Shown: piece by piece, positions 32,000 through 35,074 of the stretch
Layout of the letters: each line of letters begins with the position of its first letter
How positions within the stretch are numbered: the first letter of the stretch is position 1
Assembly (NCBI GenBank): GCA_000002445.1
Contig: CP000066.1
Coordinates: 1,024,001-1,088,000, forward strand
Direction of reading: 5' to 3'
Length of the DNA stretch: 64,000 nucleotides
Source: Trypanosoma brucei
Taxonomy: Eukaryota
The notes under the pieces: generated by a model
Databases searched by the model: none
Told to the model about the DNA's origin: nothing
Seen by the model: the letters and a program-made list of their open reading frames with translations, nothing else
Program-made: the position numbers and the translations under genes

Positions 32000-34900
32000 A
32001 TGGATTGCAAGTTGCAACATGTTCTTGCCCCGTATGTTGTGGCTAGGAGGGCCGTGAAGCGATACGGCTGCTGTCGGGGTGCATCAAATAGTATTAATGT
32101 GGACTGTTCAGCGTCAACCTGCCGGGGTCGTTTTGAAGAAGATTTTTGTGGTATTGAGTCCGTGGCAGATGCAGGACCAGCAGGCTTTGGCCACAACGAC
32201 CAGCACACGGAGAGGGGTTTGGACGTTGAGTACTTTCCAGCTTCTCGTTTGAGCGGTAGATACGTTCTGGTTTATTTGACTTCACCGTCTGGGTCTTCGT
32301 TTACCAACCATGGGCCTGATTGTGTGATGCGGACAACAGAAAGCTTATGCTCGCCTTTGCTGACGGCTTCTCCTCGCGTTGGAACGCCTGTGCCGAGTGC
32401 CAGTTCATCAACTGGGAGGGGATCTAGTGCGTCTCTTCCCATTCTGACTCAGGAGAAGACTGGTACTTCACCTTCCGCGCCGCTATGCCCTGTGGCGTCC
32501 TTGCTCTCGCGTTTCTGCATATATTTTGGCTGTCAAACAGAAAGCAGGGATGCTGAGCGTATGTCCCGTTTTGTTGTGTTGGAGGTGCGGCAGGGGATAA
32601 GTGTGGAGCCGAGGTGGGAATCTTTGCACAACATGGAAACTAGAAACAGGGCGTCGGCGTCTTTTGGGGATGCTGGCGCTATATCCTTCTCAAGGGCTGT
32701 TTCGCCGAAGGGAGTCGATGGAGCCGCATTTACTGAAGACTTCAAGGTCAATGATGCGCTTACAGATCTTTCCACTGCGGACCAAAAATTTGGTGGTTGG
32801 TTTTATCTTGAAAACTCAGCGGCATATAGGTGTGTCATTCAGAAATACAATGTTTCTTCTTGGCCGGCGATTTTACTTTTTGATCCGGCGGGGGAGCTTT
32901 TAACGGCACGGGCGTATGACCATATAGAGCGTGAAATCTCTACCCTTAGCACGAGCGACGACCCAAACATATTAGCGGTAGTAGATTCGAGGGCAGAGCA
33001 ACACATGCAAGAAGTGGTGGGGATAGGTCCTTATGCAGGTTTTCGGTCTGGATTTCCCTGGATGACACCAGATGCGGGGCGTGATGAGGACAGGGGATCG
33101 AATGCGGTTGATGACGAGGTAGAGGGGGCACCACTTTTGTCTCTTGTCAGGTGGTTGTTGCGGCACGCACGACGCGTCGGGGAGAGTTGTGAAGTGGGTG
33201 CAACTTACCCGCCGGAAGACTCGTGTAATGTGCCCGAGCAACGTTGTCTTGACTCGTGCATGGATGGAGCCACGCACCTTGCACTGTACTTTGGTGCCGT
33301 CTGGCACCCAGCGACCAAACGTTTCTTACCCAAGCTAAAGCGTTTATGGTCAGCCGCCTGCGAAGGTGGTGATGACTGCTGTGTACTTGACGATGACGCT
33401 GGCCGAAACAGTTCTGACGGTGAGGGGGCTGCCGCTTGGGAAGGGGGAAAAAGGGCGTTGAGTGCGTTTGTCGCCGACACTGGGAGCCTCTATGAGCCTC
33501 TGGGCATCGAATCGTGGAGAAGGGGAATGACAAATGACGTCTGTGCTAGTGTCAGCACAGCGGATAGCGATGCGCCATACATACCATCCCGATGTTCGGC
33601 TGTGGAAACGCCAATGGGTTCACCCAAAGAGCACCCGCCATCCTTTCAGAGCCCTACACCGACAGTCGAAGGCCCGCTGGTTTCACCTAGGGTGTTTCGT
33701 AGTGAGTTAGCAGAGGAGAAACAACCCGAGGGATCTCATCACTTCCAAGTAGTGTTTGTCAGTTGCGATATGGACGTGTCCCAGTTGAAGTCTTCGCTCA
33801 CTTCCATGCCGAGTTCGTGGCTATTCGTCTCGTCCGTCCTGGCACCTCAAGCACAGGGTGTGATCAGGGCCTGCTTGGAGTTTTTCGATGTCCGCGTGTT
33901 TCCACGCCTCGTGGTGCTGGACACGTCGCATCGAGTCGGCTTGCAGCATGATGACGGTGGGTTGTCCAAGGTGTGGTCGCGATATCCAATAGCTTTGAAG
34001 GTTGTACGCTCGCACGGGGAGAGATCTGTTCTGAATGGAAGTGGTTTGAGAGAGTTGCTTTCCGGAGATGATCTTAACGACAACGTGGTTCCACAGAGAG
34101 AGGCGAGCACGGGGGAGTGTGGCATCGATGGCTCCGCCAGGCTGCTTGCCCATGGCATCATCACTAACGAGTTGTTGCACCAAGGCTATTTGCATTCTAT
34201 GATGAGGTCTGTCCTTGGGCAAGGAGGATCTCTTTTTGTGCTTTGCTGCATCGGAAGTATTTGCCCCGATCTCCACCAGGAGTGTGTGGCTTCTTTGCGT
34301 GAAGCGTGCACGTCTTGGGCTCAGGAAACGGGACGGTTCTCTGAAGGGGTGCCGAGGCATACGCTAGGTTCGTTAACACTAGGAAAACCGTCGCAAATGA
34401 CAGTAATGGAGGCATCAACGGTGTGTGCAGGGGATTTAACAGGGCCAGCTACTCTTGCTACTGTTTCCCCACTCTCGTGTTTTATAAGGGCCGATTTGAC
34501 GATTAGCAATAGTGGGAGGTCGAGCGGGGAGGTGGCCTCACCTCCTCTGGAGCGTGTCACGACGAGTGTGGATGACAACCGCTCATCGGCCGTTTATTTT
34601 GTGGATGCCATCAGTCTTGTGCGGGGACATGAAGGCAACAGTGGAGAAGGGGCAGGGGAGGGAATCACCCGAAGTGGGCGTCGAAGCGAACTTTGCACAG
34701 AGGGGGGTTTGTCGCAGGAAGATAAGTCACTGCTTCAAGAATATGTAATCTCAGAAGTTTTGGAAGCCAATGAGCATTTCGTACCACCATTTGAAGGCGA
34801 GCCTTTTCTAGTCTACTTGCAGTGGCCTGAGCGGCGTGTGGATGTACTTCGACGCATCGATGACTCTGAGCCACCCTTGAATACGGGTGGTCCTTCGGCG

Positions 34901-35074
34901 CGGTCCCCATCTGTCACTGCTTCTGCTAACACCTTGATCCCGGCTTCAGGGACTCCATCGCCCGGCGCAGTGGAGGTCGGAGCTCCCGCCGAGGTTCCCC
35001 GCAGGTCGCCGCTATGCTCATCCGCACTGGTGAAATCGTTCATTGTGCGGTGTAACATGAAGCGAACTTGTTAA
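32000..35074 (+). CDS. large nucleoredoxin-like protein with three degenerate tryparedoxin/thioredoxin-fold repeats lacking the CxxC active site
   Basis: The track start at 31976 is GTG; the first ATG is 32000. LALYFGAVWHPATKRFLPKLKRLW aligns to tryparedoxin [24 protein letters not shown], with CPPC replaced by HPAT. WFYLENSAAYRCVIQKYNVSSWPAILLFDPAGELL and FQVVFVSCDMDVSQ ... FFDVRVFPRLVVLDTSHRVG align to FEVVLISWDENESD ... PWLALPFDQRSTVSELGKTFGVESIPTLITINADTGAII. Confidence 0.55.
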   Translation: MDCKLQHVLAPYVVARRAVKRYGCCRGASNSINVDCSASTCRGRFEEDFCGIESVADAGPAGFGHNDQHTERGLDVEYFPASRLSGRYVLVYLTSPSGSSFTNHGPDCVMRTTESLCSPLLTASPRVGTPVPSASSSTGRGSSASLPILTQEKTGTSPSAPLCPVASLLSRFCIYFGCQTESRDAERMSRFVVLEVRQGISVEPRWESLHNMETRNRASASFGDAGAISFSRAVSPKGVDGAAFTEDFKVNDALTDLSTADQKFGGWFYLENSAAYRCVIQKYNVSSWPAILLFDPAGELLTARAYDHIEREISTLSTSDDPNILAVVDSRAEQHMQEVVGIGPYAGFRSGFPWMTPDAGRDEDRGSNAVDDEVEGAPLLSLVRWLLRHARRVGESCEVGATYPPEDSCNVPEQRCLDSCMDGATHLALYFGAVWHPATKRFLPKLKRLWSAACEGGDDCCVLDDDAGRNSSDGEGAAAWEGGKRALSAFVADTGSLYEPLGIESWRRGMTNDVCASVSTADSDAPYIPSRCSAVETPMGSPKEHPPSFQSPTPTVEGPLVSPRVFRSELAEEKQPEGSHHFQVVFVSCDMDVSQLKSSLTSMPSSWLFVSSVLAPQAQGVIRACLEFFDVRVFPRLVVLDTSHRVGLQHDDGGLSKVWSRYPIALKVVRSHGERSVLNGSGLRELLSGDDLNDNVVPQREASTGECGIDGSARLLAHGIITNELLHQGYLHSMMRSVLGQGGSLFVLCCIGSICPDLHQECVASLREACTSWAQETGRFSEGVPRHTLGSLTLGKPSQMTVMEASTVCAGDLTGPATLATVSPLSCFIRADLTISNSGRSSGEVASPPLERVTTSVDDNRSSAVYFVDAISLVRGHEGNSGEGAGEGITRSGRRSELCTEGGLSQEDKSLLQEYVISEVLEANEHFVPPFEGEPFLVYLQWPERRVDVLRRIDDSEPPLNTGGPSARSPSVTASANTLIPASGTPSPGAVEVGAPAEVPRRSPLCSSALVKSFIVRCNMKRTC

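Follow-up and report, generated by a model that had tools for sequence, protein, structure and literature searches.

A trypanosomatid protein with three predicted thioredoxin-type folds and no conserved thiol active site, encoded near the tryparedoxin genes of Trypanosoma brucei

A 64,000-nucleotide stretch of the Trypanosoma brucei genome (GenBank assembly GCA_000002445.1, contig CP000066.1, positions 1,024,001 to 1,088,000 of the forward strand; hereafter the window, with positions counted from its first letter) carries two tryparedoxin genes and, downstream of them, a gene for a 1024-amino acid (aa) protein with tryparedoxin-like segments. Is such a protein a tryparedoxin, a nucleoredoxin, or something else, and how many thioredoxin (Trx)-type folds does it hold? 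A first-pass annotation of the DNA had distinguished three segments, A, B and C, and read each as a redox-dead tryparedoxin fold. Our analysis points to a different map of three folds (D1 to D3), the first two tryparedoxin-class and the last predicted from a structural model, none of them with a conserved thiol. The protein is uncharacterised, trypanosomatid-wide and nucleoredoxin-like in architecture. We place it in neither the tryparedoxin nor the nucleoredoxin family because WCPPC, the defining motif of both, is missing.

Gene and orthologs

The gene is a single open reading frame (ORF) that starts with the ATG at 32000 and stops at 35072-35074, and all the motifs that the first-pass annotation had quoted from a protein of about 1000 aa were located in its translation:

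32000..35074, + strand: coding sequence of the 1024-aa protein (ORF; identity to CBH10071.1)

The product is 100% identical to T. b. gambiense CBH10071.1 (UniProt C9ZL62), which databases label "hypothetical protein, conserved" and "Thioredoxin domain-containing protein". Copies of the same length are found in T. b. brucei 927 (Q57WB6), T. b. equiperdum and T. equiperdum, and the ORF is undamaged in four T. brucei-group genomes. A profile search confirmed the anticipated thioredoxin-fold match, as the Pfam family Thioredoxin_8 (PF13905) hit the whole protein with E=5.7e-10 (39.8 bits; cutoff, 27). Against the sequences of solved structures, the whole protein gave no match, and signal appeared only once the inserts described below were excised. 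The isoelectric point (pI) is 5.25, with the acidity mostly in linkers, and no signal peptide or retention motif for the endoplasmic reticulum was evident by eye in the sequence. Counting positions from the NUFIP gene, this is probably Tb927.3.3790 or Tb927.3.3800; Tb927.3.3740 was ruled out as its identifier, being the zinc-finger protein NUFIP itself. The main text of searchable papers mentions neither of the two candidate identifiers nor the Leishmania identifiers that we guessed for the ortholog.

An exhaustive HMMER (phmmer) search of 1.84 billion representatives (E<=1e-3) returned 14 colinear proteins in all, and every one with a source name is trypanosomatid. Seven are Trypanosoma-like, including four full-length proteins of 990-1032 aa, and six are much longer (1193-2590 aa). 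Two short ortholog fragments come from T. congolense and T. cruzi marinkellei, and a separate search identified a 2459-aa ortholog in Leishmania martiniquensis. Full-length homology to animal or plant nucleoredoxins was not detected, the phmmer search having yielded the 14 colinear proteins only. A separate homolog search, queried in turn with the protein, the ortholog alignment and a version of it freed of linkers, added one Leishmania protein and two fragments only, its candidate stage being swamped by low-complexity words.

All the orthologs are colinear and share six conserved islands separated by highly variable, low-complexity sequence. In the islands, Trypanosoma orthologs share 40-44% identity with T. 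brucei and the long orthologs 26-32%; in the inserts and linkers, identity falls to about 12%. The six islands pair up into three units, which we designate D1, D2 and D3. This distribution of sequence identity indicates that purifying selection is confined to the fold cores. Chain length varies 2.5-fold between lineages, with about 1000 aa in Trypanosoma and 2000-2600 aa in the long orthologs. The extra length of the long orthologs consists entirely of low-complexity inserts rich in Ala, Ser, Gly and Pro, which lie within the three folds as well as between them; in one case, roughly 700 aa separate the C-terminal half of D1 from the FPW tail that closes it.

Domain architecture

The central unit gave the strongest signal and changes how the fold count is read:

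33125..34069, + strand: D2, split tryparedoxin fold, aa 376-690, comprising segments B and C (profile, register)
33302..33316, + strand: WHPAT in place of WCPPC, aa 435-439 (ortholog alignment)
33359..33730, + strand: D2 insert of 124 aa, acidic and poorly conserved, aa 454-577, between helix 1 and strand 2
33731..33937, + strand: C-terminal half of D2, aa 578-646, formerly "domain C" (invariant residues, alignment)

Segments B and C had been counted as two folds. The string quoted for B lies at aa 427-450 (nt 33278-33349) and those for C at aa 582-595 and 629-647 (nt 33743-33940). Tryparedoxin residues 31-54 pair with aa 427-450 in the alignment, and its residues 59-87 with aa 578-608, so that the two segments follow one another within a single fold. 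Once the 124-aa insert was removed, D2 matched Thioredoxin_8 without interruption over profile positions 4-94 of 94 (E=3.7e-12), and the spliced D2 of orthologs behaved in the same way in 13 of the 13 tested. The spliced-D2 profile also hit solved tryparedoxins without a break (E=8e-10 to 1e-7), and spliced D2 aligned with trypanosomatid tryparedoxins in hhalign with E=2.3e-11 and a probability of 97%. Because the register is consecutive and the spliced halves match the profile end to end, B and C are the N- and C-terminal halves of one split tryparedoxin fold. Half-domains hidden in the 124-aa insert would have kept B and C separate, but no ortholog has a conserved block there, and we dropped the idea since the spliced halves already give one complete profile match.

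The hallmarks of the fold are retained in D2. The buried aspartate (D590), P604, W607 and the cis-proline position (F-P-R) are invariant. At the active site, the replacement of WCPPC by WHPAT reported in the first-pass annotation is indeed present, with both catalytic cysteines replaced, and the motif reads W-[H/D]-P-[A/S/G]-[T/S/M] in all 14 orthologs. Most orthologs also carry FPW after D2 (consensus KxFPW), which T. brucei has lost.

The N-terminal unit is more degenerate:

32213..33073, + strand: D1, degenerate tryparedoxin-like fold, aa 72-358 (conserved islands)
32279..32488, + strand: D1 insert of 70 aa, poorly conserved and modelled with low confidence, aa 94-163 (alignment, AlphaFold2 model)
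32798..32902, + strand: motif of the former "domain A", aa 267-301, in the C-terminal half of D1 (alignment)
33053..33061, + strand: invariant FPW closing D1, aa 352-354 (aligned with the C-terminal FPW of tryparedoxin)

Segment A, proposed as a domain, is only the C-terminal half of this unit. The conserved sequence of D1 is distributed over aa 72-103 (strand 1, GRYVLVYL), about 164-200 (helix 1 and strand 2), 260-322 and 346-358 (the FPW tail). Strand 1 follows the pattern V-E-Y-V-P-x-x-x-L-x-G-K-Y-V-L-L-Y-L (aa 76-93), and an invariant W-P occupies the cis-proline position (aa 288-289). The 70-aa insert fills the loop between strand 1 and helix 1, exactly where a WCPPC active site would be expected. 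In hhalign, D1 aligned with tryparedoxin end to end over 116 columns, FPW on FPW (P=3.3e-4; probability, 38%). Its profile matches in the PDB were all Trx-fold proteins (E=0.04-0.8), and its score against Thioredoxin_8 was sub-threshold, with a match in 6 of 11 orthologs (best E=0.011). The sequence signal is weak, but it points consistently to a tryparedoxin-class fold.

The C-terminal unit escaped the first-pass annotation altogether:

34163..35071, + strand: D3, thioredoxin-like fold, aa 722-1024 (AlphaFold2 model)

An AlphaFold2 model built from 11 sequences predicts the core of D3 with a confidence score (pLDDT) of 82-93 (mean 60 for the unit) and shows three disordered inserts. The model has the topology of the thioredoxin core, its elements running helix, strand, helix, strand, helix, strand, strand, helix. 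D3 lacks a conserved Cys in the loop between strand 1 and helix 1, and no ortholog has a CxxC in it. Comparisons of D3 with D1, D2, Pfam and PDB sequences returned no sequence-level match; judged by the model, D3 would be most like the non-catalytic b and b' domains of the PDI family. The likeness to these domains (ERp27, PDI b', ERp57 b' and PDILT b') is at the level of the fold only, with 7-15% identity. Hence the general description of three Trx-like folds in a nucleoredoxin architecture without a canonical redox centre stands, but the three segments listed for it amount to two folds, and the set left out the actual third.

Redox status

The 14 orthologs contain no conserved CxxC or CxxS and no invariant Cys column: T. 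brucei has Phe in place of the Cys of a "WLC" motif, and one ortholog has Ser where T. brucei has Cys762. Neither catalytic position of D2 is a Cys in any of them (0/14). The absence of a conserved CxxC that the first-pass annotation expected in orthologs therefore holds, and the alignment argues that the family as a whole is without a thiol active site. From these substitutions we infer that the 1024-aa protein would be incapable of thiol-disulfide exchange.

The claim that every fold is redox-dead is accurate at the family level, but less so for T. brucei itself. At the N-terminus of helix 1, where a conserved CxxC or CxxS could have been missed, none is conserved; the AlphaFold2 models do place a lone T. 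brucei Cys directly before this helix in both D1 (Cys163, LCPVAS, 32486-32488) and D3 (Cys755, ICPDLH, 34262-34264), and T. congolense has CRVS, a literal CxxS, at the D1 site. None of the three is conserved in the remaining Trypanosoma or the long orthologs. Cys163 and Cys755 each precede a Pro, and they may be a lineage-specific monothiol or a coincidence.

Comparison with known systems

Animal nucleoredoxin (NXN) has three Trx-like domains, of which the central one is tryparedoxin-like and carries WCPPC, while the flanking ones, similar to PDI b', have no redox centre and bind proteins (PMC9030443). The T. brucei protein shares with it the number of domains, the tryparedoxin-like centre and a redox-inactive, PDI b'-like C-terminus. 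It differs in that all orthologs have W-[H/D]-P-x-x instead of the central WCPPC, and in an N-terminal domain that is tryparedoxin-class rather than b'-like. Long disordered inserts also break up each fold, and the chain is 2.5-6 times longer. The likeness to tryparedoxin is carried by D2, and more weakly by D1, through the Thioredoxin_8 fold, the G-K-x-V-x-L-Y-F pattern of strand 1, W-x-P, the cis-proline position and the C-terminal FPW. Unlike tryparedoxin, D1 and D2 lack both catalytic cysteines, are split by inserts and sit inside a giant multidomain chain.

A putative nucleoredoxin is already known in T. brucei. Tb927.10.3970 has a thioredoxin-like domain, is nuclear and cell-cycle regulated, and is required for the segregation of the kinetoplast and nucleus; its authors propose a role in thiol reduction (PMC9464253). 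The gene described here is a separate one, on chromosome 3 rather than 10 and without the cysteines. A precedent for a Trx-type protein of the same organism without reductase activity is T. brucei Trx2, which is described as a mitochondrial, redox-regulated chaperone that binds clients and lacks disulfide reductase activity (PMC6783113); the likeness is by description only. Calsequestrin, a compact and extremely acidic protein for Ca2+ storage, contrasts with a protein of pI 5.25 whose folds are spaced by long disorder.

Genomic context

The tryparedoxin genes upstream form part of a tandem repeat:

26464-26898, + strand: tryparedoxin 1 (ORF)
27543-28403, + strand: EF-hand gene, 286 aa, copy 1 (ORF)
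29583-30017, + strand: tryparedoxin 2 (ORF)
30662-31522, + strand: EF-hand gene, 286 aa, copy 2 (ORF)

The repeat unit is a tryparedoxin gene followed by a 286-aa EF-hand-like gene, present twice with a period of 3119 nt. About 2.48 kb of each unit (26215-28697 and 29334-31816) are 97-100% identical. The two tryparedoxins differ by one residue (Thr5 or Ala5) and the 286-aa proteins not at all, and this near-identity suggests recent duplication or ongoing gene conversion. Contrary to the first-pass annotation, the tryparedoxin pair and the gene for the 1024-aa protein downstream of it are not adjacent, as the second EF-hand gene (30662-31522) intervenes. By position, the 286-aa EF-hand gene is the paraflagellar-rod component PFC6 (Tb927.3.3770); Tb927.3.3750 is PFC7.

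In L. martiniquensis (CM030424.1, 1294-17380), two tryparedoxin genes and an EF-hand gene likewise precede the gene for the 2459-aa ortholog, so that physical proximity to tryparedoxin genes is found in both Trypanosoma and Leishmania. The order being the same, the linkage must be older than the split between the two genera. The tryparedoxin gene alone is doubled in L. martiniquensis (products of 144 and 146 aa), next to a single EF-hand gene of 366 aa. Thus, the duplicated unit differs between the lineages, because T. brucei has doubled tryparedoxin together with the EF-hand gene.

Farther upstream in the window are genes for an ABC transporter of 1854 aa (13593-19157; ABC_tran and ABC2_membrane_3 domains) and for a zinc-finger protein of 624 aa (20174-22048), by position probably NUFIP (Tb927.3.3740). 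The large ORFs of the window all share the + strand, which is what a single polycistronic unit would show. Three segments (12001-14000, 24001-26000 and 62001-64000) have a G+C content of 0.36-0.41 against a window mean of about 0.50 and are presumably long intergenic or untranslated regions.

Discussion

We favor, with a probability of roughly 0.55, the reading of this protein as a non-catalytic, three-fold "pseudo-nucleoredoxin" that would bind partners via its Trx-fold surfaces as a flexible adaptor or scaffold. The single split fold of D2, the colinear orthologs with their conserved islands and no invariant Cys, the analogy with nucleoredoxin and the Trx2 precedent all point this way. The three Trx-type folds would be strung like beads on long disordered linkers, each fold itself broken by disordered inserts; D1 and D2 would be tryparedoxin-class and D3 PDI b'-like, none with a conserved thiol. 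Their surfaces could then serve as modules for non-covalent binding, as in PDI b' and the flanking domains of nucleoredoxin, and the groove of D2 may still dock tryparedoxin clients or trypanothione.

Several points weigh against this reading. The putative adaptor function is a deduction from architecture, and the searchable literature yielded no paper that names the gene. The assignment of D3 depends on the 11-sequence model, and Foldseek returned nothing significant. Each line of evidence for D1 is weak by itself, be it the E values of the PDB profile matches or the 38% probability in hhalign. The lone Cys163 and Cys755, together with the CRVS of T. congolense, leave room for lineage-specific monothiol chemistry, and the conserved His at the nucleophile position of D2 could have a chemistry of its own.

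Other readings explain part of the same evidence. The protein could act more specifically as a decoy or regulator of the tryparedoxin network, born from a tandem tryparedoxin duplication, in which the dead grooves of D2 (and D1) sequester or present partners such as the 2-Cys peroxiredoxin, GPx-type peroxidases, ribonucleotide reductase, UMSBP or trypanothione. Although D1 and D2 are of the right class, still show W-x-P, a cis-proline position, the buried D590 and an FPW tail, and are encoded two genes away from the tryparedoxin genes with the same order in L. martiniquensis, we hold this to be unlikely: trypanosomatid genomes are so broadly syntenic that a conserved linkage is weak evidence of function, and the non-tryparedoxin chain 4fyu scores at least as well against the D2 profile as trypanosomatid tryparedoxins do, so that the profile does not point to a specific sister relationship with tryparedoxin. 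Proximity to the PFC6 locus of the paraflagellar rod invites a structural interpretation instead, with Cys-less Trx folds serving as rigid blocks of a lattice or cytoskeletal assembly, as Toxoplasma TRXL1 and TRXL2 do on cortical microtubules. This is quite improbable, however, for gene neighbourhoods lack operon-like meaning in trypanosomatids, matches to TRXL1/2 were weaker than those to tryparedoxin, and disordered linkers take up more than half of the chain, an unusual share for a lattice protein.

The cysteines of the salivarian proteins raise the question of whether a monothiol chemistry like that of thioredoxins or glutaredoxins persists or was re-acquired in D1 (Cys163, LCPVAS; PCRVS in T. 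congolense) and D3 (Cys755, ICPDLH). Their modelled location right before helix 1 is that of the Trx nucleophile, and the T. congolense motif is a literal CxxS. Yet neither Cys is conserved in other Trypanosoma or in the longer Leishmania-type orthologs, the W and P that flank the canonical motif are absent, and the D1 site follows a 70-aa disordered insert, all of which makes the proposal very doubtful. Least credible of all is a decaying gene or annotation artefact without function. A mostly low-complexity, poorly conserved chain annotated only as hypothetical might give that impression, but the intact ORF in four T. brucei-group genomes and the colinear trypanosomatid orthologs, with their six common islands and invariant fold-core residues, form a pattern of conservation that effectively refutes it.

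As for the origin of the non-catalytic pseudo-nucleoredoxin that we favor, it is plausible on sequence grounds that whole tryparedoxin units were duplicated locally in the distant past. Such an origin fits because D1 and D2 keep the FPW signature of tryparedoxin and the linkage is conserved. Conserved synteny is the rule in trypanosomatid genomes. The D2 profile scores 4fyu, a "thioredoxin" chain that is not a tryparedoxin, as well as it does the trypanosomatid tryparedoxins, and we therefore claim no specific sister relationship between D2 and tryparedoxin. The old local duplication put forward in the first-pass annotation is thus plausible from the class of the folds, their FPW tails and the Leishmania linkage, but undemonstrated given the equal score of 4fyu. 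A bolder and speculative scenario, to which we attach low odds, is that of a kinetoplastid-specific pseudo-tryparedoxin/nucleoredoxin that arose beside the tryparedoxin genes before the trypanosomatids diverged and, without cysteines, came to regulate the trypanothione-tryparedoxin-peroxidase network as a decoy, sensor or scaffold; client recognition would fall to His436, at the former nucleophile position, and to D3, and the salivarian lineage would possibly have re-acquired a monothiol (Cys163, Cys755).

The assignment of the fold is in itself ordinary and in part already annotated automatically. The complete loss of the redox centre, the inserts within the folds and the linkage to tryparedoxin nonetheless make the protein a reasonable experimental target, for which the corrected map of folds, boundaries and inserts can guide the design of constructs for expression, tagging and interaction work. 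It also offers an example of pseudoenzyme evolution in which the fold cores appear to be under selection, the active site has been erased and big disordered inserts are tolerated. In trypanosomatids, the central redox pathway is the parasite-specific trypanothione/tryparedoxin system, an area of drug targets. A conserved, Cys-free relative of tryparedoxin encoded near the tryparedoxin genes would naturally come to mind as a candidate adaptor or non-catalytic regulator of this pathway.

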